Positions 38-38,419 of a DNA stretch of 64,000 nucleotides are shown one piece after another. The first letter of the stretch is position 1, and the number at the start of each line of letters is the position of its first letter. Origin of the DNA: an uncultured Acidimicrobiales bacterium (lineage in GTDB: Bacteria; Actinomycetota; Acidimicrobiia; Acidimicrobiales; CADCTF01). A program made the translations under genes and the position numbers. Under the pieces are notes generated by a model. The model worked only from the letters and a program-made list of their open reading frames with translations. It was not told the DNA's origin and searched no databases. Location of the stretch: the NCBI GenBank assembly GCA_902805655.1, contig CADCTF010000087.1, positions 53,233 through 117,232 on the forward strand, given 5' to 3'.

Positions 38-1192
38 CTATCGGGACGAGCCAGCGGCTCCGGAAGCGGAGTCCGCCACCGCCCGGTACACCGACTCGTG
101 AGCCGCCGCGGTGCGCTCCCAGGTGTACCGCGCCGCCACTTCGAGCCCGTACGACCGCCGGCTGGCGAGCCCGTCGTCGCGGCAGACCAGTCGGTCGAGG
201 GCGGCCGCCAGCGCCGCCATCTCGCCGAAGGGGACGGTCAGCGCCGCGCCGCCCGCCAGCTCGTCCATCACCGAGCCCGCGGTGGTGATGACGGGAGCAC
301 CGCAGGCGAGCGCCTCGAGCACGGGCAACCCGAAGCCCTCCTCGATGGCGGCGTACACCACGGCCTCGGACCGGCGGAAGAGGGCCGGCACGACGGCGTC
401 GTCCACGTACCCGGTGCGCACCACACGGTCGCGGTGACGGGCCGACGCGAGGGCCTCGCCCAGGGTGTCCGGGCCCCATCCTTGTCCCCCGGCGACGACC
501 AGCTGCAGCTGCGGGTGGTCGTCGGCGATCCGGTCGAACGCCCGCACCAGGGTGCCCACGTCCTTCCGGGGTTCGAGCGTGGCGGCGAAGGCCACGAAGG
601 GCGGCCGCGCGCCGAGCGGCTCGAGCAGGCGGGCGTCATCCGCTTCCTGGGCGTCGACGGTGAAGAGCCGATGGTCGATCCCGTGGGGGATCACGTGCAC
701 GGGGCACTGGGGGTCGAGCAGCTGCCGCAACCGGCGAGCCGTGGGCTCGCTGACGCAGACGAGAGCGTCGGCCCGCTTCACCGCCTGGGTGATGGCCCGC
801 TTGAAGATGGGCACCTTCAGGCGCTCGTGGTGCTCGGGGTGGTCGAAGAACGTCATGTCGTGGACGGTCACGACCTTGGGCACCTTGGTGCGCTCCGGGG
901 TGGTGTAGTGCGGGCCGTGGTGGACGTCGATGCCCCAGCGGTCGACGAAGCTCGGGCCCCGGGTCTGCTCCCACACCATCCGGCGGCCCCGGTCGTCCGG
1001 CACCACCGCGTCGACCCGGGCACCGCCGGCGATGTCGACCCAGCGGCTGCGATCGCTCCGGCGGCTCTCGAGTCGCAGGTCGATCTGGTCACGCGCATGC
1101 AAGGCCCGTACGAGCTCGACGATGTACCGCCCGGCGCCGCGAGGCTGCGCCGGCACCGCGCTGACGTCGATGCCGACGATGGGCCGCGTCAT
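38..1192 (-). CDS. GT4 glycosyltransferase (MtfB/WbdB-like)
   Basis: Starts MTRPIVGIDVSAVP..GAGRY; VTVHDM, TLEPRKD, EEGFGLPVLEALACG (EX7E motif). ATG overlaps stop of the upstream gene. Confidence 0.9.
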   Translation of the reverse strand: MTRPIVGIDVSAVPAQPRGAGRYIVELVRALHARDQIDLRLESRRSDRSRWVDIAGGARVDAVVPDDRGRRMVWEQTRGPSFVDRWGIDVHHGPHYTTPERTKVPKVVTVHDMTFFDHPEHHERLKVPIFKRAITQAVKRADALVCVSEPTARRLRQLLDPQCPVHVIPHGIDHRLFTVDAQEADDARLLEPLGARPPFVAFAATLEPRKDVGTLVRAFDRIADDHPQLQLVVAGGQGWGPDTLGEALASARHRDRVVRTGYVDDAVVPALFRRSEAVVYAAIEEGFGLPVLEALACGAPVITTAGSVMDELAGGAALTVPFGEMAALAAALDRLVCRDDGLASRRSYGLEVAARYTWERTAAAHESVYRAVADSASGAAGSSR

Positions 1193-2271
1193 CCCTGCGC
1201 CTCCCAGAGCTCCACGTGGCGCCGGGCGCATGCCTTCCAGGTCAGCTCGGCGGCACGGCCGAGGCCGGCGGTGACCAGCTGCGAGCGAACCGGCTCGTCG
1301 CTCGACGCGGTGACCAGAGCGGCGGCGATGGCGGCCACGTCGGACGGGTCGACCTCCAGCACGGCGTCGCCCGAGCTCGTGCTGGGCAGCGGGCTGGCCA
1401 CGACCGGCGTGCACTCCTGCATCGCCTCCAGCGGTGGAAGGCCGAAGCCCTCCACCAGGGGGACGTATGCGAAGCAGCGGGCTCTGCGGTACAGGCCGGT
1501 CAGCGCGCCGCCCTGCACCGGTCCGGCCAGCACCGCGCCATGCGGCACGGAGCCCTGCAACGCATCGCCCCAGCCCTTGGCGCCGACGACCACGAGCGGC
1601 CACGGCTCGGGGAGCTTGGGCCGCGCGCGCGCGTAGGCCTCCAGCAGGCGAGGCAGGTTCTTGCGGGGCTCGAGGGTGCTCACCGTCAGCAGGAAGGGCC
1701 CGGTGACGCCGACACGGGCCAGCAGCCGGTCGGTGGCCGCGTCGTCGACCGGAGCGAGGTGGTCGCAGCCGTGGGGCACCACCTCGACCTTCGCAGCATC
1801 GACACCCGCCGCCACGAGGAGGCCGGCCGTCCGCCTCGACGGCACCACCATCAGATGCCCGGCAGCGACGGCTCGCCGGAGCGACGCCTCGTGCCACCGC
1901 CGACCCCGGGCGGGGAAGGTCTCCGGCACCTCCCGCCAGGCCACGTCGTGCACCATGAGCGAGCCCCTGCCGGATCGCACCGGAGGCATGGCCTGGGAGA
2001 CGCTGTGCACGATGTCGTAGCCGGACGGCGCAGCCAGGAGGCCCCGATCCCAGGCCCGGGTGAGCAGCGGTGCCGGCAACGGCGACGATCGGATCGGAAG
2101 ACCGAGCTCCTGCAGGGGATCCGGGGCTGACGGCGGTCGGCTGGCGAGCAGCTCCACGTCGGGCCGGTCCTCGTCCAGCCAGGACATGCCGAGCAGCAGC
2201 CCACGCGCGTAGGTAGAGATGCCATCCGCCAGCCCACGCCGCAGCTGCTCCACGGCGACCAGGACGCGCAC
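1189..2271 (-). CDS. GT4 glycosyltransferase (MtfB-like)
   Basis: GTG start VRVLVAVEQL..GISTY; MVHDV, TLEPRKNL, EGFGLPPLEAM. Confidence 0.9.
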   Translation of the reverse strand: MRVLVAVEQLRRGLADGISTYARGLLLGMSWLDEDRPDVELLASRPPSAPDPLQELGLPIRSSPLPAPLLTRAWDRGLLAAPSGYDIVHSVSQAMPPVRSGRGSLMVHDVAWREVPETFPARGRRWHEASLRRAVAAGHLMVVPSRRTAGLLVAAGVDAAKVEVVPHGCDHLAPVDDAATDRLLARVGVTGPFLLTVSTLEPRKNLPRLLEAYARARPKLPEPWPLVVVGAKGWGDALQGSVPHGAVLAGPVQGGALTGLYRRARCFAYVPLVEGFGLPPLEAMQECTPVVASPLPSTSSGDAVLEVDPSDVAAIAAALVTASSDEPVRSQLVTAGLGRAAELTWKACARRHVELWEAQG

Positions 2272-2275
2272 CCGT

Positions 2276-3373
2276 TCAGCCCTTCCCCGCGATGGCCGCG
2301 GCGTAGAGGCGGACGAGCCCGTCCGCACAGGAGTCCCAGCTGAACCCGGCCACCCGGCGACGTCCCCGCTCCACCATCGTCGTCGCGAAGGCGGTGTCGT
2401 CGAGCACTCGGGCCAGCCCGCCGGCGAGGGCGTCGACGTCGCCCACGGGCACGACCACGGCCGCATCCCCCACCACCTCGACGAGGGCGGCCGCGGCGGT
2501 GGTGACGACGGGGACCCCTGCGGCCATGGCCTCGAGCGTGGGCAGCCCGAAGCCCTCATAGCGCGACGGGTAGGCGAACGCGGCGGCTCCGTGGAGAAGC
2601 GCGTCTCGGTCGGGGACGGAGACGTGGTCCAGCCGGAGGACCCGGTGTGACGCCGGGGACGCGTCGATCCGGTCCCGGAGCTCGTCCTCCGCCCAGCCGG
2701 CGGGCCCGGCCACCACGAGCCGGAGATCGGGCCGGTCCGCCGCCAGCCGGGTGAACGCGTCCACCAGGTCGGGCAGCGACTTCCGAGGTTCCACCGTGCC
2801 GAGAGCCAGCACGTACCGGCCGCTCACCGGTGACGGACCGCGGGGCTTCGGCGCGTCGACGCCATGGGGCACCACCGCCACCCGCTCGGCCGGTGCCCCC
2901 AACATCTCGACGACCTCCGCGGCCACCGCCGCGGAGGGTGTGTGGACCCACGCTCCTCGCCCGACCGCCCGGCGCACCAGGCCCGGATATCGGCGGCTGG
3001 TCGGCGTGCAGAGCTCGGGGAAGCGCACGGCGGTCAGGTCGTGCACGGTGACCACGGCCGCCGCCCGGCGGGTGGGCGGCACCACGAAGTTGGTGCCGTG
3101 CACCACGTCCACCGCACCGGTCCAGAGCTCGGCCGGGAACAGGCCGGTGCGGGACCAGATTCGCAGCAGCGGTGCCGCCACCATGGGGCGCGAGACCACC
3201 CGCACGGATGCCGGCACCACGGCCGGCAGCGCGCTCCGTCCCCGCCAGCTGAAGGCGTACGCGGCCGCCTCCACGTCGCTGCGATCGCACACCGCTCCCA
3301 GCGCGCCCCGGGTGAAGGTGGCGACACCGGTACCCGTGCCGAGCAGGGGCGTGGCGTCGAAGGCGAGTCGCAC
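2276..3373 (-). CDS. GT4 glycosyltransferase (MtfB-like)
   Basis: GTG start VRLAFDATPLLG..TGVATF; VTVHDL, GTVEPRK, YPSRYEGFGLPTLEAMAAG. Confidence 0.9.
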   Translation of the reverse strand: MRLAFDATPLLGTGTGVATFTRGALGAVCDRSDVEAAAYAFSWRGRSALPAVVPASVRVVSRPMVAAPLLRIWSRTGLFPAELWTGAVDVVHGTNFVVPPTRRAAAVVTVHDLTAVRFPELCTPTSRRYPGLVRRAVGRGAWVHTPSAAVAAEVVEMLGAPAERVAVVPHGVDAPKPRGPSPVSGRYVLALGTVEPRKSLPDLVDAFTRLAADRPDLRLVVAGPAGWAEDELRDRIDASPASHRVLRLDHVSVPDRDALLHGAAAFAYPSRYEGFGLPTLEAMAAGVPVVTTAAAALVEVVGDAAVVVPVGDVDALAGGLARVLDDTAFATTMVERGRRRVAGFSWDSCADGLVRLYAAAIAGKG

Positions 3374-3440
3374 GGGGGGCGCAGTCTCGCACCGCGACGA
3401 CGCTGGGGTGGCGCAGCGCCGCCTAACGTGACCAGCCGCC

Positions 3441-4505
3441 ATGACCGACCTGGACCTCAAGCAGGTGCTCGCCGAGATCGAAGCGGAGGTCCGCCTGCGC
3501 CGGGCCAGTGGCCAGTTCACGCTGGCCATGGAGCGAGAGCTCGACGACACGTTCGAGGCGCTCACCCCCACCGCACGCCGCGCGCAGGACTTCCAGTCGG
3601 CGCTGGAAGAGGTCGAGGAGGCGGCGTTCATCGACGTCGACCTGCCGGTCGCCTCGAACGCGCCGGGGGGCACCCAGGCCAAGCTGGCGCTCGGCCGCCT
3701 GATGACGTGGGCGCTGCGGCACGTCGCGCAGCAGACGACCACGTTCGCGGGCACGACGGCCCGTGCCCTTCGGGTGCTCTCGTCCCGCATCGACGCGCTG
3801 GACGACGAGGTGCGTCGGGTGGAGGCGCTGCTCAGCGACAGGAGCGAGGAGGCCGACGCCGAACGGCAGCTGCACATCGCAGAGCTGGAGATCGGCGCGT
3901 GGCACGACCGGCTCGCGCTGGCCTTCGCCGGCTCCACCGGGCGCGTGCTCCATGCCGACTGCGGATCGGGAGGACTGGTGGCGCTGCTCGAGTCGAGCGG
4001 CATCGACGCGTACGGTGTCGAGCCCCTGCCGCGCCTGGCGGATGTGGCCGTGGCCAACCGGATCGAGGTGCGCCTCGACTCGGTGGCCGCCCACCTGGCA
4101 CGCGTGCCCGACGAAGCCCTGGCCGGCATCGTGCTGTCGGGCTGCGTCGACCGCCTGGTGCCGCCCGACCTCATCCGCCTGGCCAACGCCGTGACCCGAG
4201 TGCTGCAGCCGGGCGGACGGCTGGCCATCGTCTCCTCCACGCCGGCCGGATGGATGGCCACCACCACCCCGGTCATCGCCGACCTGTCGGGTGGCCGGCC
4301 GGTGCACCCCGAGACGTGGCTGACCCTTCTGGCCCAGCGCGGCTTCGTGGACCCCGTCCACGAGCCCGGCCGGGCCCGGTCGCCACTGGAGCCGCTGCCC
4401 TCGTCGGTGGTCGGCGCCGACGAGCTCGAGCCGCGCCTCGCCGCCCTGTTCGCCGCCGCCTTCCCTCCCACCGACTACCTCGTGCTGGCCGACCGGGGCT
4501 CGTGA
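3441..4505 (+). CDS. Coiled-coil + class I SAM-dependent methyltransferase-like protein
   Basis: N-terminal helical/heptad region (RIDALDDEVRRVEALL); divergent motif I VLHADCGSGG, AYGVE, RVLQPGGRLAI, RPVHPET. Confidence 0.7.
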   Translation: MTDLDLKQVLAEIEAEVRLRRASGQFTLAMERELDDTFEALTPTARRAQDFQSALEEVEEAAFIDVDLPVASNAPGGTQAKLALGRLMTWALRHVAQQTTTFAGTTARALRVLSSRIDALDDEVRRVEALLSDRSEEADAERQLHIAELEIGAWHDRLALAFAGSTGRVLHADCGSGGLVALLESSGIDAYGVEPLPRLADVAVANRIEVRLDSVAAHLARVPDEALAGIVLSGCVDRLVPPDLIRLANAVTRVLQPGGRLAIVSSTPAGWMATTTPVIADLSGGRPVHPETWLTLLAQRGFVDPVHEPGRARSPLEPLPSSVVGADELEPRLAALFAAAFPPTDYLVLADRGS

Positions 4506-5587
4506 CCTCGGTCCACCAGCTGGTGCCGAGCTTCGTCTCTCGCGATGCCGTCGGCGCCCACACCATCCGTGTGCAGGAGGTGCTGCGCGGCATGGGCCTC
4601 GACTCGGAGATCTACGCCGCCGACATCGGTGCGAAGGTCGGGGTGAAGGCCCGCCACTACCGGGCGCTGAACCGGCGGACGGGCGACCCGGACACCTGGC
4701 TGCTGTACCAGCTGTCGACCGGCAACCGCATGGCCGACTGGCTGCTCAAGCGGCCCGAGCGCAAGCTCGTGAACTACCACAACATGACGCCGGCCGACCT
4801 GTTGACCCCCTGGAACCCGAGCGTCGGTGCGGAGATCGAGCAGGGCCGCCGGCAGCTCCGGCGGCTCGCGCCGCACGTGGAGATGGCCATCGCCGTGTCC
4901 GAGTTCAACCGCGAGGAGCTGGTGGCCGCGGGGTACGAGCGCACCGAGGTCGTGCCGCTGTTCTCCGAGCTGGGCGGCGTCGAGCCGGCGTCGGCGTCAC
5001 CGTCCCCGACTGCGGCCGGCGGAGCCGCCGTCGGTGCGGGGGCGCGATGGCTGTTCGTCGGACGGGTCGTGCCCAACAAGTGCCAGCACGACCTGGTCAA
5101 GGCGCTCGCCGCCTACCGCCGCATCTACGACCCGAACGCTGAGCTCGTGCTCGTGGGAAAGCCCACCTTCGGGAACTACCTGGCTGCCGTCGAGGCCCTG
5201 GCCGTCGAGCTCGGCGTGGGCGATGCGGTGCACCTCCGGGGCTCGCTGACGCCGGCGGAGCTGGCCGCCGAGTACGAAGCGGCCGACGTGGTGGTGTCCC
5301 TCTCGGAGCACGAGGGCTACTGGGCCGTCGGGCTGGAAGCGATGGCCCACGGGGTGCCGGTGGTGGCCTATGCCGCGGCCGCCGTGCCCGAGACCGTCGT
5401 GGGTGCCGGCCTGGTGCTGCCCCACAAGGGCGCCACCTACGTCGCCGCGGCCGTGCACCGGGTGCTGCACGACGAGGTGCTCCGTGGCCACCTGATCTCC
5501 GGCGGACGTGCCCGTGCCGAGGAACGCTCGTCGGAGCGAACCGCCGAGCAGTTCCGCTCCGTCATCGCCACGGTGCTGTCGGGCTGA
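4502..5587 (+). CDS. GT4 glycosyltransferase
   Basis: GTG overlaps upstream stop; YHNMTP, LFVGRVVPNKCQ, SEHEGYWAVGLEAMAHG. Confidence 0.88.
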   Translation: MTSVHQLVPSFVSRDAVGAHTIRVQEVLRGMGLDSEIYAADIGAKVGVKARHYRALNRRTGDPDTWLLYQLSTGNRMADWLLKRPERKLVNYHNMTPADLLTPWNPSVGAEIEQGRRQLRRLAPHVEMAIAVSEFNREELVAAGYERTEVVPLFSELGGVEPASASPSPTAAGGAAVGAGARWLFVGRVVPNKCQHDLVKALAAYRRIYDPNAELVLVGKPTFGNYLAAVEALAVELGVGDAVHLRGSLTPAELAAEYEAADVVVSLSEHEGYWAVGLEAMAHGVPVVAYAAAAVPETVVGAGLVLPHKGATYVAAAVHRVLHDEVLRGHLISGGRARAEERSSERTAEQFRSVIATVLSG

Positions 5588-6708
5588 TGCGGGCGGTCCA
5601 CCAGTTCGTGCCCTACCTCAACCCGGGGGCGGTCGGCAGCCACCTGCTGGAGATCCAGCGAATCGTTCGGAGCCTCGGTCGCGAGTCGGAGGTGTTCGCC
5701 GGTGAGCCTGCGCGGGCTCCCCTCTCCGGGCTGGCCCGCCTCTATACGGACTACGGCACCACGTACCCCGGGCGAAGCGACGACGTGCTGCTCTACCACC
5801 TGGCGCTGGGCTCCCCCATGGCCCGGTGGCTGATGCACCAACCGAGGTTCCTGGCCGTCGACTACCACAACATCACGCCGTTCGAGTTCTTCGAGCCCTG
5901 GCACGAGCGGCTCACGGAGGAGACGGCGCTCGGCCGGCTGGAGATGCACCAGCTGGCCGCCCACACCGGGTTCGCCATGGCCGACTCGACGTACAACGCC
6001 GAGGATCTCGTGCGGGCCGGCTACTCCGCTCCGACGGTGGTGCCCATCCTCCTCGACCTGTCCGACCTGGCGACCGAGCCCGACCCGGCCACCCTTCGTC
6101 GCCTGCGGCAGGTGAAGGCGGGCGGTGGCAGCGACTGGCTGTTCGTCGGTCGGATGGCGCCCAACAAGTGCCAGCACCACCTCGTCGCCGCGTTCGCCAC
6201 CTACCGGCGGCTCTACGACCCGCTCGCCCGCCTGCACCTGGTGGGCGGACCGTCCCCCGACTCGTACTTCGACGCAGTGGTGTCCTACGCCCGCGGTCTG
6301 GGAGTGGCCGGCCACGTCGAGATCAGCGGCTCCGTGTCGGCCGCCGAGATGAGCGCGCAGTACCAGGCGGCGGATGTGCTGATCGGTCTCTCGGAGCACG
6401 AGGGCTTCTGGGTGCCGCCGCTGGAGGCCTGGCACCACGGCGTGCCGGTCATCGCGTTCGCGTCCACCGCCGTGCCCGAGACCGTCGGAGACGGAGGGCT
6501 GCTCCTGCGGGACAAGAGCCCGGACCGTGTGGCGGCAGCCGCATGGCGGATGGCCAGTGACGCCGAGCTGCGGGCCACCGTCACCGCCGCGGGCCGGCGC
6601 AGGCTCGAGACCTTTGCGCTCGAGCACACCCGGGCCCGGTTCGTCGAGGCTCTGGCCCTGCTCGACCAAGCGGCCGGTGAAGGCGTCGAGGACGGGCCGC
6701 TGCCGTGA
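5587..6708 (+). CDS. GT4 glycosyltransferase (paralog of upstream gene)
   Basis: YHNITP, LFVGRMAPNKCQ, SEHEGFWVPPLEAW; TGATG coupling. Confidence 0.88.
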   Translation: MRAVHQFVPYLNPGAVGSHLLEIQRIVRSLGRESEVFAGEPARAPLSGLARLYTDYGTTYPGRSDDVLLYHLALGSPMARWLMHQPRFLAVDYHNITPFEFFEPWHERLTEETALGRLEMHQLAAHTGFAMADSTYNAEDLVRAGYSAPTVVPILLDLSDLATEPDPATLRRLRQVKAGGGSDWLFVGRMAPNKCQHHLVAAFATYRRLYDPLARLHLVGGPSPDSYFDAVVSYARGLGVAGHVEISGSVSAAEMSAQYQAADVLIGLSEHEGFWVPPLEAWHHGVPVIAFASTAVPETVGDGGLLLRDKSPDRVAAAAWRMASDAELRATVTAAGRRRLETFALEHTRARFVEALALLDQAAGEGVEDGPLP

Positions 6709-30524: not shown

Positions 30525-30528
<4 letters not shown>

Positions 30529-31607
30529 CCTTCGTTGCCCACCCTCGCACCGTGCAGGTCTGCGCCCTCGGGCACCTCGACCTCACCCTGCACCACCGAG
30601 AGGCCCGACAGCTTCGCCCCGCGCCCGATGACCGCGCCATCACCGACGATCGAACCGTCGACGTGCGCCTCGGCGCGGATGACCGCCCCGGCCAGCACCA
30701 CCGAGTCGTTCACGACGGCCCCTGCCTCGATCCGCGCACCTGCGCCGATCACCGAGGCGTGCACGGTGGCACCACTCGCGATGTAGGCCGCGTCCCCGAT
30801 CAGGGCCGGCCCGTCGACGTGGCCGTCGATGATCGCCGCGCCGAGCGTCCAGATGGCGTGCGTGCGCTGGCGGGCGTGGGGCGCAGGCGGCCCGTCCCGA
30901 CGCCCGGCGATCAGATCGAGGTTGGCCTGGAGGAACAGCTCCGGCGTGCCGGCGTCGGTCCAGTACGCGTCGGACTGCAGAGCGAACAGGGCGCCCTCGG
31001 CGGCCATGGCCGGGAACACCTGTGTCTCGATCTTGTACGGCTGCGCCACCGGGATGCGGTCGAGCACCGACGGCTCGAGCACGTAGAACCCGGCGTTGAT
31101 GTAGTTGGTGGGGGCATCGGCGGCCGCCGGCTTCTCGATGAAGGCGAGCACGCGGTTCTCGTCGTCGGTGGGCACCACCCCGAAGGCGGACGGGTCCTCG
31201 ACCGGGGTCAGGCCGATGGTGGCCTGTCCTCCCCGGGCCCGGTGCATGGCCACCAGCGCGCCGAGGTCGAGATCGGTCAGCACATCGCCGTTCACGGCGA
31301 TGAAGGTGTCGTCGATGCCGGCCGCTCGAGCCGCGAAGGCGATGCCGCCGGCGGTGTCGAGGGGCTCCGACTCCACGGCGTAGCTCAGCGGGACGCCGGC
31401 GCACCGCTCGTCCGGGAATGCCAGCCGGAAGGCATCCGGCTGGTACCCCATCGAGAGCACGACCTCGGTCACGCCGTGGGACCGGAGGTGGCCGACCACC
31501 CGCTCGATGATGGTGACCTCGGCCACGGCCAGCAGCTGCTTCGGCGTGCGGTAGGTCAACGGCCGGAGGCGGGTGCCCTTCCCGCCGACGAGGACGACGG
31601 CCCTCAT
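30525..31607 (-). CDS. NDP-sugar pyrophosphorylase (mannose-1-phosphate guanylyltransferase-like)
   Basis: LVGGKGTRLRPLT..PK, NGDVL, FIEKP, INAG, YWTDAGTP; C-terminal hexapeptide repeats. Confidence 0.88.
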
Positions 31608-32320
31608 GGTGCGACGGTGGTGCTGGGCGTGGTGCTGCCGTCGGCGGGCGGCGGGGTGGTGGTGGTCTCGGACGGTTCGGGTGCGAGCAGCTCGGTCCGC
31701 GGGTCGAGCCGGGCCAGGTTGCCGGCGGTGGGCGGATCGGGGAGCACGGCTCCCTTGGGCGCGAAGGCGATGGTGATCAGCGCGTTGTCGGTCAGCGGGA
31801 TGTCGCCCACGTTCTTGGTCACGATGTCGTCGTTGACCTTCACCATCACCTCACCGGGCTGCCCGTTGCACTGGGTGTCACCCTCCTTGAACGACTCCCC
31901 GCCCGGCATCCGGACCTCCGAGTCGGTGAGGGTCATGCCGACGGCGTCGGCGAACTCGGAGAGGACGGCGTTCTTGCCCGCCGCCCCGGTGACGAAGGGG
32001 TGGATGTGGATGAGGCCGTCGGCGTGGCTGTGGATGCCTCGCGGATCGGACTGGTCCTGGATCGGAGCCTGGAACGTGCCGCACAGCACGACCCCGTAAG
32101 CCGCGTGCCAGTGGTCCACGTTGGCCCTCGGCGGGCCGATCGTGGCCAGCACCGCGTCGCGGCGCTCGGTGCGACTGAACAGGATGCCCAGCGACCCGAT
32201 CAGGACGACCACGGCCAGCAGCGCCCACCACCGGTAGGGCTTGGGCCCCCCACCCTTGGTGCGGCCACCGCCGGTGCTAGCCGCACGCGACACCTTCTTG
32301 CTGGACGACGCTCTTCCCAT
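31604..32320 (-). CDS. Membrane-anchored hypothetical protein with His-rich motifs
   Basis: Basic N-terminus, one TM helix, DHWH and GIHSHADGLIHIHP motifs, Pro/Thr tail; stop overlaps the next ATG. Confidence 0.8.
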   Translation of the reverse strand: MGRASSSKKVSRAASTGGGRTKGGGPKPYRWWALLAVVVLIGSLGILFSRTERRDAVLATIGPPRANVDHWHAAYGVVLCGTFQAPIQDQSDPRGIHSHADGLIHIHPFVTGAAGKNAVLSEFADAVGMTLTDSEVRMPGGESFKEGDTQCNGQPGEVMVKVNDDIVTKNVGDIPLTDNALITIAFAPKGAVLPDPPTAGNLARLDPRTELLAPEPSETTTTPPPADGSTTPSTTVAP

Positions 32321-32374: not shown

Positions 32375-33256
32375 TCAGGACGACCGGCCGGCCCGCCCCT
32401 GCAGCCAGCGATGCGCCCACGCCAGGCCCGTGCGCGCCACCAGGCCGACCGCCACGACGGGCAGCAACGCCCGCTCGGGGTAGCGGGTGCTCCGCGCCGC
32501 GAAGCGCAGCAGCGCGCGGTGGTGCTCGACGATCATGCGGTAGGGGTGACGGTCGGCCGAGACCCCCTGCACGTGCATGATGACCGCCGCCGGCTCGTAG
32601 GCCACCTGCCAGCCGGCCCGGCCGACCCTCCAGCACAGGTCGACGTCCTCCGCGTACATGAAGTAGTCCTCGTCGAAGCCGCCGATCGCGTCCCACGCCC
32701 GTCGCCGCACGAGCATGCACGAGCCGGAGACCCAGTCCACCACGGCGTACGCGGCGTGGTCCCAGTCGAGCATGCGGTACCGCCGGGTGAAGCGGTTCCT
32801 CGGCGCCACCATGCCCAGGAAGCCGTGACCCACCGAGTCGATGAGCCGCGGGAACTCCCGGGCCGACGGGTACAGGCTGCCGTCGGGGTTCTCGATGCGC
32901 GGCCCGACGATGCCGAGGCGCGGGTTGTGGTCGAGCGCTTCGACGAGCACCTTGATCATGCCCGGCTGCACCACCGTGTCGGGGTTCAGCACGAGGAGCA
33001 GCTCGGTGTCGGTGAAGGCCGCCCCGCGGTTGGCCCCGCGGCCGTAACCCAGGTTGGCCCCCGTCTGCACCACGGTGACGTCGGGGTCCGCCCGCTCGAG
33101 CGCCTCGATCGACCCGTCCACCGACGCGTTGTCCACCACGATGACCTGCCGCACGCCCTCCAGGCGGAGGCTGGCGACACAGTCGGTCAGCAGGTCGCCG
33201 GCGTTGTAGTTGACGACCACCACCGACACGCGGGTGGCCGGGTCGTCAGCGGCCAC
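32375..33256 (-). CDS. GT2 WbbL-like rhamnosyltransferase
   Basis: [49 protein letters not shown]. Confidence 0.85.
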
Positions 33257-34196
33257 GGAAGTACTCGGCCGTGCGCTCCAGGCCCTCGCGCAGCTCGACG
33301 ACGGGTTCCCAGCCCAGTCGCTCGCGGGCGAGGGTGATGTCGGGACGGCGCTGCACCGGGTCGTCCACCGGCAACGGCTCGTGGACGATGGTCGAGGTCG
33401 AGCCCGTCACCTCGATCACCAGCTCGGCCAGCTGCTTGATGGTGAACTCGTTGGGGTTGCCGATGTTGATGGGGCCCACCTCGTCGCTGTCGAGCAGGGC
33501 CAGGAAGCCGCGGACCTCGTCGTCGACGTAGCAGAAGCTCCTCGTCTGCTCGCCGTCCCCGTAGATGGTGAGCGGCTCGCCGGCCAGGGCCTGCACGAGC
33601 AGGGTCGAGACGACCCGCCCGTCGCCCGGGCGCATGAACGGGCCGTAGGTGTTGAAGATGCGCACGATGCGGACGTCGACGCCGTGGTAGCGGTGGTAGG
33701 CCATGGCCATCGCCTCGCCGAACCGCTTGGCCTCGTCGTAGACCCCGCGGGGACCCACCGGGTTCACGTGCCCCCAGTACGTCTCGGTCTGCGGGTGCAC
33801 CTGCGGGTCGCCGTACACCTCGCTCGTCGACGCCAGGAAGAACGTGGCGCCCTTGTCCTTGGCCAGCCCGAGCAGGTTGTGGGTGCCGAGGCTGCCCACC
33901 TTCAGCGTCTGGATCGGCATCTCCAGGTAGTCCTTGGGCGACGCCGGGCTGGCGAAGTGCAGCACCGCGTCGACCGGCCCGGCCACGTGGACGAAGCTGC
34001 TCACGTCGTGGCGCTGGAACGAGAAGCAGTCATCTGCGAAGAGCGCCTCGATGTTGGCCAGGTCACCGGTGATGAGGTTGTCGATGCCGACGACCTCATC
34101 GCCCCGCGCCAGCAGGGCCCGGCAGATGTGCGACCCCAGGAACCCGGCCGCGCCGGTGACGACGATGCGCCTACCGCTGCGAGTGCCGCCGCTCAT
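33246..34196 (-). CDS. UDP-glucuronate decarboxylase family SDR
   Basis: [64 protein letters not shown]. Confidence 0.88.
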
Positions 34197-35044
34197 GCCG
34201 TCAGCTCCTTCACCAGGCGCTCGAGGGGCTCCGGCCACTCGGGCAGCAGCGGGATGCCCTGGAGGCGGAGGGCGGCGTTGTCGAGCACCGAGTACGCCGG
34301 CCGGGGGGCCGCCACCGGGTACTCGGCCGTGGTGATGGGGCGGATCTTCGCAGGGTCGAGGCCGGCGGCGTGCAGGGTGGCCGAGGCCAGCTCGAACCAG
34401 GTGGTCGGGCCCTGGTTGGTGACGTGGAAGGTGCCCGGGAGGCGGGCCACCACCAGCCGGCGGACCATGCCCGCCAGGTCATCGGTGAAGGTGGGGCAGC
34501 CCTGCTGGTCGGCCACCACGCCGATCTCGTCGCGCTCGCCGGCCAGGCGCAGCATCGTCTTCACGAAGTTCTTGCCCGCCGCACCGCAGACCCACGAGGT
34601 CCGCACGATGGTGGCTCCCGGGTCGAGCTCGCGCTCGCCGGCCAGCTTCGACCGGCCGTAGACCGTCTGCGGGTTCGGCGCGTCCCACTCCAGGTACGGC
34701 CGATCGGCCGTGCCGTCGAAGACGTAGTCGGTGGAGATGTAGCAGAGCCGGGCTCCGGTGATCCTGGCCCCTTCGGCCACGTGGCGGGTGCCGAGGGCGT
34801 TGACCTGGAATGCCAGGTCGACCTCGGTCTCGGCCGCGTCGACGGCGGTATAGGCGCCGGCGTGCACGACGACATCGGGCTGCACCGTGGTGATGACCTG
34901 GAGCGTCCGCTCGCGGTCACCCACGTCGAGGGTCGCCCGGTCGCACGCCACGACTTCGTGCGTCCTCCCGCCGTCCTCGAAGGCACGCACCAGGTCGTGG
35001 CCGAGCTGGCCGGCCGCGCCCGTGATGAGCACGCGCGTCGTCAC
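34193..35044 (-). CDS. rfbD: dTDP-4-dehydrorhamnose reductase
   Basis: [47 protein letters not shown]. Confidence 0.95.
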
Positions 35045-35069: not shown

Positions 35070-36029
35070 TCACGCGGCGGCCTTCAGCGGCTCCCACCAC
35101 CAGCGGTTGTCCCGGTACCACGCCACCGTCTGGGCCAGGGCCTCGTCGAGGGTGCGGCGCCGCTGCCAGCCGAGCTCGGTGATCTTGGTGATGTCGACGG
35201 AGTAGCGGCGGTCGTGGCCCTTGCGGTCCTCCACGTACTGCACCCGGTCCTCACCGGCTTGGAGCAGGGCGAGGATCTTGTCGACGAGCACGCGGTTGGG
35301 CGTCTCGTTGCCGGCGCCGATGTTGTAGATCTCCCCCGGCGCCCCCTTCTGCAGGGCGAGGAGCACGGCCGCGCAGTGGTCGTCCACGTGCAGCCAGTCG
35401 CGCTCGTTCAACCCGTCGCCGTACAGCGGGATGGTGCCGCCGTCGAGCACGTTGGTGACGAAGAGCGGGATGGCCTTCTCCGGGAACTGGTAGGGCCCGA
35501 AGTTGTTGGTGCACCGGGTTACGACCACCGGCACGCCGTGGGTGTGGTGGTACGAGAGGGCCAGGAGGTCCGAGCCGGCCTTGGACGCCGAATAGGGCGA
35601 CCGGGGCTCGAGCGGGTCGGTCTCCTTCGACGAGCCCTGCTCCACGGACCCGTACACCTCGTCGGTGCTGACGTGCAGCACGCGCTCGACCCCGAGCCGG
35701 CGGGCCGTGTCCATCACGAGGTTGGTGCCGAAGCAGTTGGTGAGCACGAAGTCGTCCGACCCGGCGATCGAGCGGTCCACATGGCTCTCGGCCGCGAAGT
35801 GCACGACCGCGTCCTGGCCGGCCATGGCGTCCTCCAGCGTGCCGGGGTCGCAGATGTTGCCCTTCACGAACCGGTAGCGGGGGCTGTCGTCGACGTCGCG
35901 GAGCGTCGACAGGTTCCCGGCGTAGGTGAGGGCGTCGTAGACGGTGACCTCGTCATCCGTGTGGGCCAGCACGTGTCGCACGTAGTTGGAGCCGATGAAG
36001 CCGGCCCCGCCCGTGATGAGCTGCTTCAT
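35070..36029 (-). CDS. rfbB: dTDP-glucose 4,6-dehydratase
   Basis: GGAGFIGSN, LTYAGN, FAAESHVDRSI, STDEVYGS, YSASKA, DRKGHDRRY. Confidence 0.95.
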   Translation of the reverse strand: MKQLITGGAGFIGSNYVRHVLAHTDDEVTVYDALTYAGNLSTLRDVDDSPRYRFVKGNICDPGTLEDAMAGQDAVVHFAAESHVDRSIAGSDDFVLTNCFGTNLVMDTARRLGVERVLHVSTDEVYGSVEQGSSKETDPLEPRSPYSASKAGSDLLALSYHHTHGVPVVVTRCTNNFGPYQFPEKAIPLFVTNVLDGGTIPLYGDGLNERDWLHVDDHCAAVLLALQKGAPGEIYNIGAGNETPNRVLVDKILALLQAGEDRVQYVEDRKGHDRRYSVDITKITELGWQRRRTLDEALAQTVAWYRDNRWWWEPLKAAA

Positions 36030-36916
36030 GGCCGCCCAGGGTACTGACTGCCTTCGTCGGCCAGCCGCAGCACGTGGCGGCCGTAGGCCGAGCTGCGCAT
36101 GCCCTCACCCAGCCGGGCCAGCTGCTCGATGTCGATGAAGCCCATGCGCCACGCCACCTCCTCGATGCAGGCGATCTGCTCGCCTTGGCGGTGCTCGAGC
36201 ACCTGCACGAACTCGCTGGCCTGGAGCAGGCCCTCGGGCGTGCCGGTGTCGAGCCAGGCCATGCCCCGACCCAGGTGCACGAGCTGGGCCGCGCCCCGCT
36301 CGATGTAGTGGTTGTTCACGTCCGCGATCTCGATCTCTCCGCGAGCCGACGGCTTCACGTTGCGACTGATCTCGACGACGTCGTTGTCGTAGAAGTACAG
36401 CCCGGTGATGACGGTGGACGACTTGGGCTTCGCGGGCTTCTCCTCCACCGAGATCAGCCGTCCGCCGGCGTCGACCTCGGCCACCCCGTAGTCCTGGGGG
36501 TTGGTGACCGTGTAGCCGAACAGGGTGCAGCCCGACTGCAGGGCGGAGGCCTCCAGCACCAGCTCCTGCAGGCCGTGGCCATGGAAGACGTTGTCCCCCA
36601 GCACCAGGCAAGCCGTGTCCGAGCCGATGTGGTCCTCCCCCACGAGGAAGGCGTCGGCCAGGCCCTTCGGCTCGTGCTGCACGGCGTAGGTGAAGCTCAT
36701 GCCGAGCTGCGAGCCGTCACCGAGCAGTCGCTGGAAGAGCGGGACGTCCTGCGGGGTCGAGATGAGCAAGATGTCCCGGAGCCCCGCCAGCATCAGGACC
36801 GACAGCGGGTAGTAGATCATCGGCTTGTCGTACACCGGCAACAGCTGCTTGGAGACGGCCATGGTGGCCGGGTACAGCCGGGAGTTCTTGCCGCCGGCGA
36901 GGATGATGCCCTTCAT
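36026..36916 (-). CDS. rfbA: Glucose-1-phosphate thymidylyltransferase
   Basis: MKGIILAGG, SKQLLPVYDKPMIYYPL, LGDN, EEKP, PSARGE, WLDTGT; RBS GGAGGT. Confidence 0.95.
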   Translation of the reverse strand: MKGIILAGGKNSRLYPATMAVSKQLLPVYDKPMIYYPLSVLMLAGLRDILLISTPQDVPLFQRLLGDGSQLGMSFTYAVQHEPKGLADAFLVGEDHIGSDTACLVLGDNVFHGHGLQELVLEASALQSGCTLFGYTVTNPQDYGVAEVDAGGRLISVEEKPAKPKSSTVITGLYFYDNDVVEISRNVKPSARGEIEIADVNNHYIERGAAQLVHLGRGMAWLDTGTPEGLLQASEFVQVLEHRQGEQIACIEEVAWRMGFIDIEQLARLGEGMRSSAYGRHVLRLADEGSQYPGRP

Positions 36917-36967
36917 CGATCTACCTCCACGTCGGGGCCGCGCTGCTGCGTGCAGCACAGCGAACGT

Positions 36968-38419
36968 CTAGCACTGCTCCTCGGGCGGCGCGGCCGGCTC
37001 GGGCGGCGCAGCCGGGGACTGCGGGACCGAGGTGACCGGCGCGGCGGGATCCCCACCCGGTTCGCGCACCCCTCCGAAGTCGGCGCCCGTGGTGAGCACC
37101 ACGTCGACGCCCCGGAGGGTGGGGTCCTCCTTCAGCTCGGCCGGCGCACGGAGGTGGCTCTGCACCAGCAGGGCCTTGTCCCGCTGGCCCGCCCCGTAGG
37201 CCAGCGTCGACTTGGCGTTCCGGAACGACGCCGCGTCGCCCGCGCCGGCGACGTTGTAGCCGAGCGCCCGCAGGCCACCGGCGACCGCGGTGGCCTGCCC
37301 CTCGGCGCCCGAGCCGTTCCGCACCCGCACCCGCACACTGCTCGACGAGATCGCCGGGGGCGCCTCGGTCACCGTCTCGGCCGGCGCGGCCACTCCGTTG
37401 AACTGATCGATCACCGCCTGGGCGTCGGGTTGCTTCATGCGCAGCACCGATGCCCCACCGACGGTGGCCGGCACCGTCGGCATGGTGAGCATCTGAACGG
37501 CCGACGGCTCCAGGGACTTGAAGTGGTAGGCGAGCTTGGCCAGCTCTCCCGGCGAGAACCCGTCGTCGAGCACGACGTTCTGGATGCCGGTGCTCACCAA
37601 CCGGTTCACCGCCACCAGGTCGAGCCCCTTGGCCTTGCGGCCCGACTCGCGCACCACCCTGCGCACGAAGTCCTGCTGGCGCTCGATGCGCCCGATGTCA
37701 CCGCTGCCGTCCACCCGCCAACGGCCGCTCTCGAACTGCTCGTAGTTGCGGCTGCGGACGAAGGCGAGCGCCATCTCGCCGTCGAGCTCGACGCACCCCG
37801 CCTGCGGGATGTCGAGGCCCGACACCTTGTCACGAGCACGCGAGGGCACGTAGATGGGCACGCCGCCCACCGCGTCGACGATGCCGCGAAAGCCGTTGAA
37901 GTCCACCTGCATGTAGTGGTTGATGCCGATGCCGAGGCTCTCGCGGATCGTCAGGATCAGCTGCTCCGGTCCTTCGAGGAACGCGCTGTTGATGCGGTCC
38001 TGGCGCCGGGTGCCGGCGATGGGAAGGTACAGATCGCGAGGGATCGACAACATGGCGGCCTGCTTCGTCCTCGGGTCGACCCGCAGGATGATGATCGTGT
38101 CGCTGCGCTGACCGGTGACCTGGCGGGCGCTCCCGAAGGCCTCCGCCTCCTCCGGGGACAGCGTGGCACGTGTGTCGGACCCGACCAGCAGGACGTTCAT
38201 GACGTCGCCTGGGATCTCTTCGGCTTGGGTGCCGCCACCGCCCCCGAACACCCCGGCCAGGTCGGTGGTGTCGATGCGGCCGTACTGCATGCGCAGGTAC
38301 CCGTAGCCCACGCCGGTGGCGAGGACGCAGAGCGCGACGAAGATGTTGGCGGCGATGAGGAGCCGCCGGGGCCACCGTCGGCGGCGCGCCGGGGGCGCCT
38401 CCTCGAGGGGGTGGGCCAC
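36968..38419 (-). CDS. LCP (LytR-CpsA-Psr) glycopolymer-peptidoglycan ligase with C-terminal LytR_C domain
   Basis: TM anchor, NVLLVGSDTR, RSDT, SIPRD, RINSA, FVRSR, DIGRIERQQ; VRVRNGSG..G.A tail domain. Confidence 0.92.
   Translation of the reverse strand: MAHPLEEAPPARRRRWPRRLLIAANIFVALCVLATGVGYGYLRMQYGRIDTTDLAGVFGGGGGTQAEEIPGDVMNVLLVGSDTRATLSPEEAEAFGSARQVTGQRSDTIIILRVDPRTKQAAMLSIPRDLYLPIAGTRRQDRINSAFLEGPEQLILTIRESLGIGINHYMQVDFNGFRGIVDAVGGVPIYVPSRARDKVSGLDIPQAGCVELDGEMALAFVRSRNYEQFESGRWRVDGSGDIGRIERQQDFVRRVVRESGRKAKGLDLVAVNRLVSTGIQNVVLDDGFSPGELAKLAYHFKSLEPSAVQMLTMPTVPATVGGASVLRMKQPDAQAVIDQFNGVAAPAETVTEAPPAISSSSVRVRVRNGSGAEGQATAVAGGLRALGYNVAGAGDAASFRNAKSTLAYGAGQRDKALLVQSHLRAPAELKEDPTLRGVDVVLTTGADFGGVREPGGDPAAPVTSVPQSPAAPPEPAAPPEEQC

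Follow-up and report, generated by a model that had tools for sequence, protein, structure and literature searches.

The two secreted peptidoglycan enzymes encoded in a wall-polysaccharide locus of this acidimicrobial genome carry the same tail of six repeats, predicted to form a beta-propeller, and we propose that this tail probably represents a novel type of tag for retaining secreted proteins at the cell surface. Among related genomes, the amidase/SpoIID pair keeps its place in the wzm/wzt locus, and its common tail is exchanged pairwise between lineages. We consider it likely that the tail is a lineage-specific module for envelope targeting or retention, which places secreted enzymes on one common wall component. 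That this component is the LCP-attached polysaccharide of the same locus is plausible but a more tentative suggestion; peptidoglycan or a surface protein are possible alternative ligands. Taken together with the locus, the propeller and the tail swap, the claim of a general anchor is, in our judgement, slightly favoured.

Genes were called by GC3 log-odds and domains assigned by Pfam and NCBIfam scans in positions 38-38419 of the window (the whole stretch of 64,000 nucleotides that was analysed). This segment is an ABC-exported (Wzm/Wzt), LCP-attached wall-polysaccharide locus with the following genes:

38-1192, minus strand: GT4 glycosyltransferase GT4_a (Pfam Glycos_transf_1, 87.1 bits)
1189-2271, minus strand: GT4 glycosyltransferase GT4_b (Pfam Glyco_trans_1_4, 59.1 bits)
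2276-3436, minus strand: GT4 glycosyltransferase GT4_c, start approximate (Pfam Glycos_transf_1, 106.1 bits)
3441-4505, plus strand: MT354, methyltransferase with a coiled-coil-like N-terminal half (Methyltransf_23 and Methyltransf_11, residues 150-266)
4502-5587, plus strand: GT4 glycosyltransferase GT4_d (Pfam)
5587-6708, plus strand: GT4 glycosyltransferase GT4_e (Pfam)
6705-7874, plus strand: GT4 glycosyltransferase GT4_f (Pfam)
7871-9217, plus strand: GT2 (Pfam Glycos_transf_2, 64.8 bits)
9290-9976, plus strand: GT2 (Pfam Glycos_transf_2, 76.9 bits)
9973-10368, plus strand: small DUF2304 membrane protein (DUF2304, 84.4 bits)
10399-13536, minus strand: 1045-aa protein with an N-terminal methyltransferase (Methyltransf_11, 26 bits), a central GT2-like region and a coiled-coil-like C-terminus
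13577-14602, minus strand: GT2 (Pfam)
14631-17030, minus strand: GT2+GT4 fusion of 799 aa (Pfam)
about 17118-19584, plus strand: double GT4 (Pfam), start uncertain (16669 or about 17118)
19642-20466, plus strand: Wzm, ABC-2 permease (ABC2_membrane, PF01061, 55.5 bits)
20463-21677, plus strand: Wzt, ABC ATPase (ABC_tran, 77.6 bits) with a C-terminal Wzt_C domain (103.4 bits, cut-off 30.4)
21674-23023, plus strand: GT4-like protein of 449 aa (Glyco_trans_1_4, 36.2 bits)
23174-25009, plus strand: secreted N-acetylmuramoyl-L-alanine amidase of 611 aa with the propeller tail (Amidase_2, 61.5 bits)
25028-27064, minus strand: secreted SpoIID/LytB protein of 678 aa with the propeller tail (SpoIID, 70.5 bits; TIGR02669, 112.1 bits, cut-off 83.3)
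27226-28629, plus strand: FAD-dependent oxidoreductase (Amino_oxidase, 92.2 bits)
28655-29584, plus strand: CofD-family protein (CofD, 180.4 bits)
29581-30528, minus strand: NAD-dependent epimerase, sugar-nucleotide supply (Epimerase, 195.4 bits)
30525-31607, minus strand: NTP-transferase with a hexapeptide-repeat C-terminus, sugar-nucleotide supply (NTP_transferase, 160.3 bits)
31604-32320, minus strand: conserved membrane-anchored protein (N-terminal hydrophobic segment)
32375-33256, minus strand: GT2 adjoining rmlD, WbbL-like by position only (Glyco_tranf_2_3, 81 bits)
33246-34196, minus strand: epimerase/dehydratase (Pfam)
34193-35044, minus strand: RmlD (RmlD_sub_bind, 318.5 bits)
35070-36029, minus strand: RmlB-like dehydratase (GDP_Man_Dehyd, 240.8 bits)
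36026-36916, minus strand: RmlA (NTP_transferase, 223.8 bits)
36968-38419, minus strand: LCP-family glycopolymer ligase (LytR_cpsA_psr, 122.9 bits) with LytR_C (48.1 bits)

This content supports the locus type proposed in the first-pass annotation, and confirms its inventory of NDP-sugar genes, about 14 glycosyltransferases, two methyltransferases, Wzm/Wzt and an LCP protein. By Pfam/NCBIfam, exactly 14 genes have a GT domain: six single GT4, four single GT2 and four composite or weak ones (the 1045-aa methyltransferase+GT2-like protein, the 799-aa GT2+GT4 protein, the double GT4 and the weak 449-aa GT4-like protein). The two methyltransferases are encoded at 3441-4505 and 10399-13536, but the coiled coils ascribed to them (residues 90-147 of MT354 and 979-1035 of the 1045-aa protein) are flagged only by a crude heptad scan, a weak check. 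The EpsD-like glycosyltransferase family of NCBIfam matches the latter protein at 51.7 bits, below its cut-off. Sugar-nucleotide supply comprises RmlA, the RmlB-like protein and RmlD for dTDP-rhamnose, two further epimerases and the NTP-transferase with an LbH domain, while RmlC is encoded outside the block, elsewhere in the same genome. The glycosyltransferase previously described as WbbL-like is indeed a GT2 beside rmlD, but it scores only 46.5 bits against the NCBIfam rhamnosyltransferase TIGR01556, under the cut-off of 200.55, and therefore the label denotes resemblance only. The LCP ligase exceeds the cut-off of TIGR00350 (116.4 bits, NCBIfam); its start is at 38419 or upstream as far as 38695, and in the long ORF residue 93 is followed by an arginine-rich stretch and then a hydrophobic segment. 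Near the start of GT4_c the coding frame shifts at about 3240-3440. Several genes have orthologs in similar surroundings: those of GT4_a adjoin wzm in G005, G006 and G008 (~60% identity), those of GT4_b are syntenic (59-61% identity), and the 449-aa protein has a 65% identical ortholog near wzt in G022. The membrane-anchored protein at 31604-32320, which matched no Pfam or NCBIfam family, has syntenic orthologs in G006 (61% identity) and G024 (43%). CofD orthologs (65-70% identity) are kept beside the locus in G006, G024, G028, G201, G215 and G217.

The first-pass annotation had also recognized two secreted peptidoglycan enzymes with the same six-repeat tail, and this is borne out by the Amidase_2 and SpoIID proteins. 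The former, of which the database holds 88% identical 611-aa homologs, begins with the signal peptide MRRAVQVLVAALVVLASSALPIETAWA and has six tandem repeats at 24215-24979; the latter also has a signal peptide, with six repeats at about 25058-25807. An HMM built from the 12 repeat units matches them at E = 7e-114 and 4e-105, respectively, well outside what chance would give. The AF2 model of the tail (six repeats of about 42 aa) is all-beta, with three strands per repeat (pLDDT 87.8, pTM 0.85), i.e. the repeats are predicted to fold as the six three-stranded blades of a beta-propeller. The repeat corresponds to no family in the Pfam and NCBIfam copies searched and exhibits only a faint RCC1-like signal. 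Nonetheless, the family is large: in a 50%-identity library 21,280 representatives match at E <= 0.001 and 11,319 at E <= 1e-30, and 7,952 of 8,000 scored candidates match the propeller at E <= 0.001. Partner domains among the candidates include SpoIID, amidases, L,D-transpeptidases, S8 proteases, GH43 and CAP, as well as sulfatase- and cellulase-annotated families.

Among 33,630 six-frame ORFs of this genome, the 12-unit HMM identified 17 multi-repeat ORFs and one single-repeat fragment, with the next hit at E = 2.1. It had been predicted that carriers across the genome would have signal peptides and varied catalytic partners, and stated beforehand that repeats mainly in cytoplasmic proteins would speak against an anchor; a clear N-terminal signal-like sequence is present in at least 14 of the 17, and the partners range widely. 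Amidase_2, SpoIID, YkuD+PG_binding_1, VanY, GH43, GDSL, Malectin, a squalene-cyclase-like domain, DUF5122 and NHL occur on one carrier each, Peptidase_M10 on two, and five carriers (e.g. L004) have no Pfam partner. The propeller is a promiscuous module of extracytoplasmic proteins. As four of the 17 carriers have it in the N-terminal half of the ORF, it is not a C-terminal sorting signal.

For comparison we used 91 genomes of the order, of which 41 contain the propeller (module-bearing) and 50 do not (module-less); as these genomes share kinship, all cross-tabulations given here overstate independence. The distribution of the propeller is patchy within this one order, and only 6 of 150 other genomes in the phylum-wide sample possess it, so that, contrary to the earlier assumption, the propeller is not general to Acidimicrobiia. 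A Wzt_C match is found in 36 of the 50 module-less genomes (and in nine of ten module-less close relatives), and three module-bearing genomes (G196, G223 and G245, with assemblies 90-99% complete) lack it. Almost the whole order has Wzt_C-type export, and therefore the glycan system neither needs nor predicts the propeller.

The expected co-occurrence and synteny with the glycan locus hold in part. The genes for SpoIID and amidase with a propeller tail remain syntenic with wzm/wzt and GT/MT genes across many families, and MT354 orthologs are concentrated in module-bearing genomes (see below), but Wzt_C is common in module-less genomes and only two of the 17 carriers are encoded inside the locus. 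SpoIID matches occur in 47 of the 91 genomes and share a contig with a Wzt_C match in 22, at a distance of <= 13 kb in 20 of these; in four more (G187, G244, G022 and G221) SpoIID is 4-11 kb from the MT354 ortholog. G005, G006 and G008 have the amidase-propeller gene in the same locus, which in G006 and G008 also contains the SpoIID-propeller gene; in G005 the latter is on another contig, and in G030 and G019 it directly follows wzm-wzt. In nine genomes the amidase/SpoIID pair is found within the locus though SpoIID has no propeller, and therefore the linkage is partly a property of the enzymes, not of the tail. Depending on the lineage within the order, the tail shared by the pair is the propeller, DUF4214, "GDWNGDG" repeats or another repeat. 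A non-propeller tail is common to the locus amidase and SpoIID in G247 (DUF4214 on both), G225 and G234, with 36-45% identity over 200-340 aa. G247 and G027, both with 0 propeller matches, have 61 and 83 DUF4214 matches, respectively, against 0 in G000; DUF4214 has thus expanded in a propeller-less family as the propeller has in this genome. The tail repeat of G225 is present on about five ORFs, all <= 30 kb from wzt. In other module-less genomes, one SpoIID copy has a C-terminal hydrophobic anchor (G016) or SpoIID has a lysine-rich tail (G029).

MT354 is a candidate chain-capping methyltransferase. The block MT354-GT4_d-GT4_e-GT4_f is kept after wzm-wzt in G201, G212, G205 and G232, where the MT354 ortholog adjoins wzt. 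Orthologs of MT354 were found in 24 of the 91 genomes, 22 of them module-bearing, i.e. in 22 of 41 module-bearing versus 2 of 50 module-less genomes (Fisher p = 7e-8, kinship ignored); the remaining 19 module-bearing genomes have none at E <= 1e-25. The Wzm and Wzt proteins of G005, G006 and G008 share only 33-45% identity with those described here, and the large MT/GT genes were not found in the loci of these genomes. GT and MT content varies even inside a family, while the propeller sequence is highly conserved, and therefore a glycan ligand would need a conserved substructure. We envisage that the propeller would place secreted enzymes, above all the autolysin pair of amidase and SpoIID, on one wall component. 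More tentatively, the ligand could be a conserved feature of the locus polysaccharide, e.g. a methyl-capped chain assembled by the MT354/GT4 block.

A rival reading takes peptidoglycan itself (glycan strands or stem peptides) as the ligand, with the propeller a domain that directs wall enzymes to their substrate and that other exoproteins borrowed later, and with the glycan locus a mere neighbour. Conservation of the propeller despite the variable glycan genes agrees with this view, as does the SpoIID homolog of the module-less G018, with two copies of PG_binding_1 in the propeller's place. G245 has its sole propeller copy on SpoIID and lacks both a Wzt_C match and an MT354 ortholog, and in another class (family f25), with one or two propeller matches per genome, the propeller of the G121, G107 and G163 loci belongs to a secreted protein that, by eye, resembles a LAS-type peptidase in its N-terminal domain (Pfam matched neither of the two scanned, from G163 and G121). 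However, the L,D-transpeptidase carries PG_binding_1 in addition to the propeller, and therefore the two domains are not redundant. Moreover, the pairwise swapping of the tail between lineages is more easily explained by a lineage-specific ligand than by one as conserved as peptidoglycan. The association with the capping-type methyltransferase MT354 and the scarcity of peptidoglycan enzymes among the partners (SpoIID 3, Amidase_3 1 and M23 1 in 76 high-scoring family members, among the 25 of 51 families listed) likewise make a peptidoglycan ligand rather unlikely, although this scarcity also counts against our own reading.

Alternatively, the propeller could be a protein-protein module that docks to a surface layer or membrane complex, co-assembles the amidase with SpoIID, or, in the manner of BLIP-II-type propellers, binds and regulates another wall enzyme. 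The secreted propeller BLIP-II has three-stranded blades, as does our model, and the sole relatives of solved structure are RCC1-like protein-binding propellers (HERC2, E = 1.2e-3); free-standing secreted propellers, such as the five carriers without a Pfam partner, are also compatible with this role, and a tail common to two cooperating enzymes fits co-assembly equally well. Nevertheless, PDB profile searches at E <= 10 gave no match to BLIP-II itself, and a search for SLH and CW_binding_2, positive in 0 of 5 genomes, yielded no candidate gene for a surface layer. The propeller also occurs on 17 carriers that are unrelated to each other in this genome, and other genomes have dozens of copies each, which rules out a device specific for pairing amidase and SpoIID; altogether, we regard a protein ligand as unlikely. 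It is quite improbable that the propeller does not anchor at all and instead binds carbohydrates of the environment, as a general lectin or similar domain, or serves as an inert stabiliser, with the position of the two enzymes in the locus due to shared envelope regulation alone. Partners such as GH43, the GDSL esterase and Malectin, the sulfatase- and cellulase-annotated families, the 15 carriers outside the locus and the presence of Wzt_C with or without the propeller would suit such a role, but the carriers include enzymes that act on the wall of the producing cell (amidase, SpoIID, L,D-transpeptidase and VanY), module-less homologs bear recognised tethers instead, and neither the paired tail swapping on the locus enzymes in several lineages nor the association with MT354 would be expected.

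The proposed arrangement finds its closest precedent in the lytB/lytC pair of the Bacillus subtilis teichoic-acid cassette, whose proteins bear repeats where those of the locus described here bear the propeller. According to the gene arrangement given in PMC8753576, lytC (amidase), lytB (SpoIID/LytB domain) and tagU (LCP) stand side by side in the wall teichoic acid cassette of that species.

The region between position 38 and about 38419 of the window is an ordinary member of the known ABC-transporter-dependent type of polysaccharide pathway. Genes of the window, whose G+C content is 72%, were called by a log-odds score of third-position G+C and named from Pfam and NCBIfam; by these assignments nearly all genes of the block serve polysaccharide synthesis and 14 of them contain a glycosyltransferase (GT) domain. 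The gene of a chorismate-binding enzyme at 38484 marks its boundary.

Features of the locus and of the adjoining stretch
3441-4505 (+): second methyltransferase, 354 aa (MT354)
23174-25009: Amidase_2 protein, 611 aa (Amidase_2, 61.5 bits)
25028-27064: SpoIID/LytB protein, 678 aa (TIGR02669, 112.1 bits)
27226-29584 (+): FAD-dependent oxidoreductase and CofD-family gene, directly adjoining the amidase/SpoIID pair
31604-32320 (-): membrane-anchored protein, 238 aa, with histidine-rich motifs
in the block: single-domain GT genes, six GT4 and four GT2
in the block: other GT-containing genes, namely a 1045-aa methyltransferase plus GT2-like protein, a 799-aa GT2+GT4 fusion, a double GT4 and a weak GT4-like gene
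in the block: RmlA, RmlB-like protein, RmlD, two further epimerases, and an NTP-transferase with a hexapeptide-repeat tail
in the block: GT2 adjoining rmlD
in the block: DUF2304 membrane protein
in the block: LCP+LytR_C ligase
40359-48011: downstream stretch past the locus, with a three-gene ABC-2 transporter (40359-42916), a biotin ligase, an acyl-CoA carboxylase alpha subunit and an 843-aa FtsX/MacB-type permease (45480-48011)

The exporter genes overlap by 4 nt and encode Wzm (ABC2_membrane, 55.5 bits) and Wzt (ABC_tran, 77.6 bits), the latter with a C-terminal Wzt_C domain that scores 103.4 bits against a cut-off of 30.4. The LCP protein exceeds the cut-offs of both PF03816 (122.9 bits) and TIGR00350 (116.4 bits), and an arginine-rich stretch together with a hydrophobic segment in its translation mark an N-terminal membrane anchor. 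The dTDP-L-rhamnose set is complete genome-wide, with RmlA, the RmlB-like protein and RmlD in the block and two copies of RmlC (PF00908) elsewhere. The block contains no polyprenyl-phosphate sugar-1-phosphate initiating transferase; the genome has two PF00953 genes, both located outside it. Both methyltransferases of the locus display coiled-coil-like stretches, detected only by a crude heptad scan. The scan of positions 19400-27400 for promoters and terminators revealed nothing above the shuffled expectation.

Some genes of the locus fall outside this scheme. The histidine-rich 238-aa protein matches no Pfam or NCBIfam family, and orthologs occupy the same position in the related genomes G006 (61% identity) and G024 (43%). 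Orthologs of the CofD-family protein, with 65-70% identity, stay beside the wzm/wzt locus in G006, G024, G028, G201, G215 and G217; this gene and the oxidoreductase may belong either to F420 biosynthesis or to modification of the glycan.

The amidase and SpoIID genes are convergent neighbours, located between wzt and the sugar-nucleotide and LCP genes, and each product has a signal peptide and six C-terminal units of about 42 aa. The first-pass annotation had described a glycan locus that includes two secreted peptidoglycan enzymes with the same six-repeat tail, and the gene calls, the Pfam and NCBIfam assignments and the repeats confirm this description. As in a LytC/LytB-type pair, an amidase and a SpoIID/LytB protein occur together, share one repeat module and reside in a wall-polymer cassette; wall binding by the repeats is a putative property.

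The consensus of 43 units is PVVxMAxTPSGxGYWLVAxDGGIFxFGDAxFxGSTGxxRLNx, with G-Y-W, D-G-G and G-S as invariant positions; in the amidase the propeller occupies residues ~340-605. An AlphaFold2 model built from an alignment of 14 tails (pLDDT 87.8, pTM 0.85) is all-beta, with six units of three strands each, and predicts a six-bladed beta-propeller. Foldseek comparison of the tail with the PDB returned only propellers, of generic seven-bladed WD40 types (TM 0.5-0.63), and no informative lectin or wall-binding match. When isolated tails were compared with Pfam and NCBIfam, no family reached its cut-off; RCC1_2 scored 16.6 and 13.0 bits against a cut-off of 22, which leaves the tails outside the RCC1/RCC1_2 families (PF00415, PF13540). 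The sole match in PDB profile searches was the RCC1-like domain of HERC2 (E = 1.2e-3 to 1.4e-3), and 29 of the 30 nearest clusters in the ESM Atlas have no common Pfam family. The tail is therefore probably a distant RCC1-like propeller that forms an unnamed family in the libraries searched. P0016, a homolog with 88% identity, carries a precomputed match to PF27503.1, a model absent from the Pfam library used here, which may cover either the tail repeat or some other part of P0016.

The module is promiscuous. Among 33,630 six-frame ORFs of the source genome, an HMM of the unit detected 17 multi-repeat ORFs and one single-repeat fragment, with the next match at E = 2.1. The fragment is a 122-aa ORF outside the window (L016:7001-7366, G000:C87:21287-21652) with one unit at E = 6.6e-14, possibly a piece of a gene or a carrier disrupted by a frameshift. 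The partners that act on the wall are Amidase_2, SpoIID, YkuD+PG_binding_1 and VanY; further partners are GH43, GDSL, Malectin, two Peptidase_M10, a squalene-cyclase-like domain, DUF5122 and NHL, while five of the 17 carriers contain no partner family. A signal peptide is clear in 14 carriers; of the other three, one has a hydrophobic segment at its N terminus, one is truncated by the contig end, and one is ambiguous. The check proposed in the first-pass annotation, to build a repeat HMM, count the carriers genome-wide and look for signal peptides and varied partners, thus came out in favor of an exported module with many partner families. That the repeats are a C-terminal sorting signal was rejected, since four of the 17 carriers have the module in the N-terminal half.

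Only two of the 17 carriers are encoded in the locus. The neighbourhoods of the other 15 contain no GT or LCP paralogs, the sole exception being a second sugar-nucleotide cluster near the Malectin carrier. This cluster (L010, G000:C1:114477-124133) includes an NTP-transferase, RmlC, a dehydratase and a dehydrogenase-like gene, located 4-7 kb from the Malectin + propeller gene (~870 aa) at a contig end.

A profile search of protein databases retrieved 21,280 representatives at 50% identity, 11,319 of them at E <= 1e-30, and a word-indexed search gave 7,952 matches among the 8,000 candidates scored; the named sources are Acidimicrobiia, Acidimicrobiales or Actinomycetota. Partners among the 120 hits listed include SpoIID, amidases, L,D-transpeptidases, S8 proteases, GH43 and CAP. 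About 30 of these 120 act on peptidoglycan, as judged by reading, a count that includes accessions taken to be CHAP and GH25. A second sample comprised 76 of 146 retrieved high scorers (up to 800 aa, in listing order, up to 49,000 residues) and contained 51 different families, with adhesin-like domains foremost and few peptidoglycan enzymes among the 25 families shown. Therefore the propeller is a general exoprotein module, in which wall enzymes are a notable but minor share of partners. Several propeller-tailed proteins (P0023, P0075, P0084) have been named 'ribosomal protein L24E' by JGI; Pfam Ribosomal_L24e gives only a weak spurious match to the repeat (E = 0.77), and the naming is an artefact.

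The range of the module is patchy. Among 30 close relatives it is found in all 12 genomes of the same family and in 8 of 18 from the order's other families, typically giving tens of matches, and in the order sample it is found in 41 of 91 genomes. The phylum-wide sample yielded six positives among 150 other genomes (two of the six flagged as unpublished); five come from a single family in a different class and show one or two matches apiece, and one lineage has 34 matches. The proposal that the module characterizes Acidimicrobiia as a whole was hence not borne out, and what is seen is an expansion restricted to certain lineages. The secreted carriers from the other class (L040-L042 in G121, G107 and G163; one locus each, ~440-530 aa) have the N-terminal motifs SEHKEGRAWDW and HxDHVHFSF, which look LAS-peptidase-like by eye; Pfam found no family in the carriers from G163 and G121.

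Three further members of the family have the amidase-propeller gene in this locus; two of them have the SpoIID-propeller gene there as well, and in G005 the SpoIID gene lies on a separate contig. In two other families the SpoIID-propeller gene directly follows wzm-wzt. Across the order sample, SpoIID was matched in 47 genomes: in 22 it shares a contig with Wzt_C, and the distance is at most 13 kb in 20 of these, the exceptions being 31 kb and 533 kb; in 19 Wzt_C is on a different contig, and six have no Wzt_C match. In four of the genomes with split contigs SpoIID lies 4-11 kb from an ortholog of MT354. On the other hand, Wzt_C itself is present in 30 of 31 close relatives, in 74 of 91 genomes of the order and in 36 of the 50 without the module, and three module-bearing genomes lack a Wzt_C match. 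Of the expected co-occurrence and synteny with the export genes, the synteny was thus upheld, and the co-occurrence says little: a gene that is nearly universal with or without the module is close to uninformative as evidence of a link. The linkage is also independent of the propeller, since in nine genomes the SpoIID encoded in the locus lacks it. Orthologs of MT354 are more discriminating: they occur in 22 of 41 genomes with the module and in 2 of 50 without it (Fisher p = 7e-8, with no correction for phylogeny), and MT354 with three GT4 genes comes after wzt in several families.

Two individual genomes deserve mention. In G212, a propeller-tailed S8 protease, Amidase_2 and SpoIID form a row on one strand after wzm-wzt, the methyltransferase and three GT4 genes (L053:8020-13927, G212:C40), which looks like an operon. 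In G245, a 1.8-Mb genome in a single contig, the only propeller match is a SpoIID ORF (734 aa, G245:C1:953942-955939), and neither a Wzt_C match nor an MT354 ortholog was found there.

Related lineages have exchanged the tail in the amidase and SpoIID as a pair. Both proteins of the locus carry DUF4214 in G247 (e.g. L056:5183-9909), 'GDWNGDG'-type repeats in G225 and another repeat of about 100 aa in G234, and within each of these genomes the two tails are 36-45% identical over 200-340 aa. DUF4214 has 61 and 83 matches, on dozens of ORFs, in two genomes of the family of G247 (f16; G247 and G027), neither of which has a propeller match, while the source genome has no DUF4214 match; the two unrelated modules thus fill an equivalent genomic role in separate families. 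The repeat of G225 is limited to about five ORFs around its wzt. The amidase of G247 contains degenerate propeller-like repeats before its DUF4214 tail. Where relatives lack both the module and the linkage, their SpoIID carries different tethers: two copies of PG_binding_1 (G018), a C-terminal hydrophobic anchor (one copy in G016) or a lysine-rich tail (G029). We considered whether PG_binding_1 counts complement the module, and rejected this, as genomes with and without it have 2 to 9 matches in no pattern.

Because the tail is always common to two cooperating autolysins, is replaced in both at once and is spread over the exoproteome of each lineage, we think it probable that it is a targeting or retention module for one component of the envelope. 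The propeller would hold the amidase, the SpoIID autolysin and other exoproteins on that component. The alternative that the module does no anchoring seems very improbable.

With regard to the ligand, we tentatively propose that it might be the glycan made by the locus. The placement of the autolysin genes and the association of MT354 with the module argue for this, as does the lineage-specific swapping of tails, since wall glycans vary and peptidoglycan is constant, a point that equally weakens the case for peptidoglycan as the ligand. However, the module is conserved while the GT content varies within the family, few of the carriers are encoded in the locus, and some module-bearing genomes lack a Wzt_C match or an MT354 ortholog, including G245, where SpoIID bears the only copy. 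It also speaks against the locus glycan that the SpoIID of G018 has PG_binding_1 at the equivalent position, as would befit binding to peptidoglycan; on balance we regard peptidoglycan as an unlikely ligand. A protein partner, too, we judge improbable.

Starting from the locus glycan as the ligand, one can go further and imagine the propeller as the first of a new structural class of secondary-wall-polysaccharide lectin anchors, which docks tens of proteins per genome on a methyl-capped, LCP-attached glycan. In related lineages the chemistry of the glycan and the anchor would have changed hand in hand, with DUF4214 and 'GDWNGDG' repeats as counterparts of the propeller in a matched ligand-anchor series and the amidase and SpoIID as the ancestral client. 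We find this extended scenario rather doubtful.

Cassettes for wall polymers that include two autolysins with a common wall-binding module are already known. What appears to be new is the module itself, which forms a large propeller family without a name, the way it has expanded within part of a single acidimicrobial order, and the apparent vicarious role of DUF4214 and other repeat types among sister lineages. Full-text literature searches listed no paper on the repeat, on propeller-type wall anchors in Acidimicrobiia or on vicarious tails, and to our knowledge very little is known about surface retention of enzymes in Actinomycetota beyond the model genera. If our reading is true, the more than 20,000 database representatives of a family that has no model in the libraries searched gain a function, DUF4214 gains its first functional hypothesis, and autolysin targeting by wall polymers applies to Acidimicrobiia as well as to Firmicutes. 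Tails swapped in pairs offer a ready comparative design to ask whether binding tracks the glycan. Should the ligand be peptidoglycan or a protein, the module would still be a large new extracytoplasmic domain family whose structure is worth determining.

Among known systems, the non-covalent anchors of Firmicutes include CWB2, which binds PSII (the cwp locus of C. difficile), and SLH, which binds pyruvylated SCWP (B. anthracis). The propeller resembles them as a promiscuous repeat module of many secreted proteins, some encoded near polymer genes, and differs in its unrelated fold, its putative ligand and the small share of carriers in the locus; SLH (PF00395) and CW_binding_2 (PF04122) each gave no match in the five genomes searched, the source genome among them. 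With RCC1 and BLIP-II, whose blades in the case of BLIP-II consist of three strands, it shares short repeats, the 'hydrophobic strand - DG-x-V/I-x-x-x-G' signature and, in the predicted model, three strands per blade. In contrast to them it has six blades of 42 aa rather than seven, is fused to secreted enzymes, scores below the Pfam cut-off and gives no match to BLIP-II.

The polymannose O9a antigen of E. coli is made with Wzm and a Wzt whose C-terminal domain binds the cap, the coiled-coil methyltransferase WbdD as terminator, and the GT4 enzymes WbdA/B/C. Our locus likewise has Wzm, a Wzt with Wzt_C, a coiled-coil-like methyltransferase adjoining a row of GT4 genes, and an NTP-transferase of the mannose-1-phosphate guanylyltransferase type; unlike in O9a, no kinase domain is seen and the product is presumably attached by LCP to peptidoglycan rather than to lipid A-core. 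In mycobacteria an LCP gene (Lcp1) stands beside the rmlD-wbbL genes of the linker unit, and here too the LCP gene adjoins rml genes and a GT2, although this GT2 falls below the cut-off of the rhamnosyltransferase model and the PF00953 initiating transferases lie elsewhere. The LCP+LytR_C architecture recurs in CglA of Streptomyces (PMC11481543).

The closest precedent is lytABC of B. subtilis, located in the wall teichoic acid cassette with the TagGH ABC exporter. LytB and LytC of this bacterium have the same wall-binding repeats. A report on the cassette lists lytC (amidase), lytB (SpoIID/LytB) and the LCP gene tagU as neighbours (PMC8753576). The Acidimicrobiales locus, known from genes alone and from another phylum, has Amidase_2 instead of Amidase_3, a six-bladed propeller instead of CW_binding_2 as the common module, and a GT-built, presumably rhamnose-linked polymer instead of teichoic acid; it agrees with lytABC in placing an amidase gene and a SpoIID/LytB gene side by side in the cassette of an ABC-exported, LCP-attached wall polymer.
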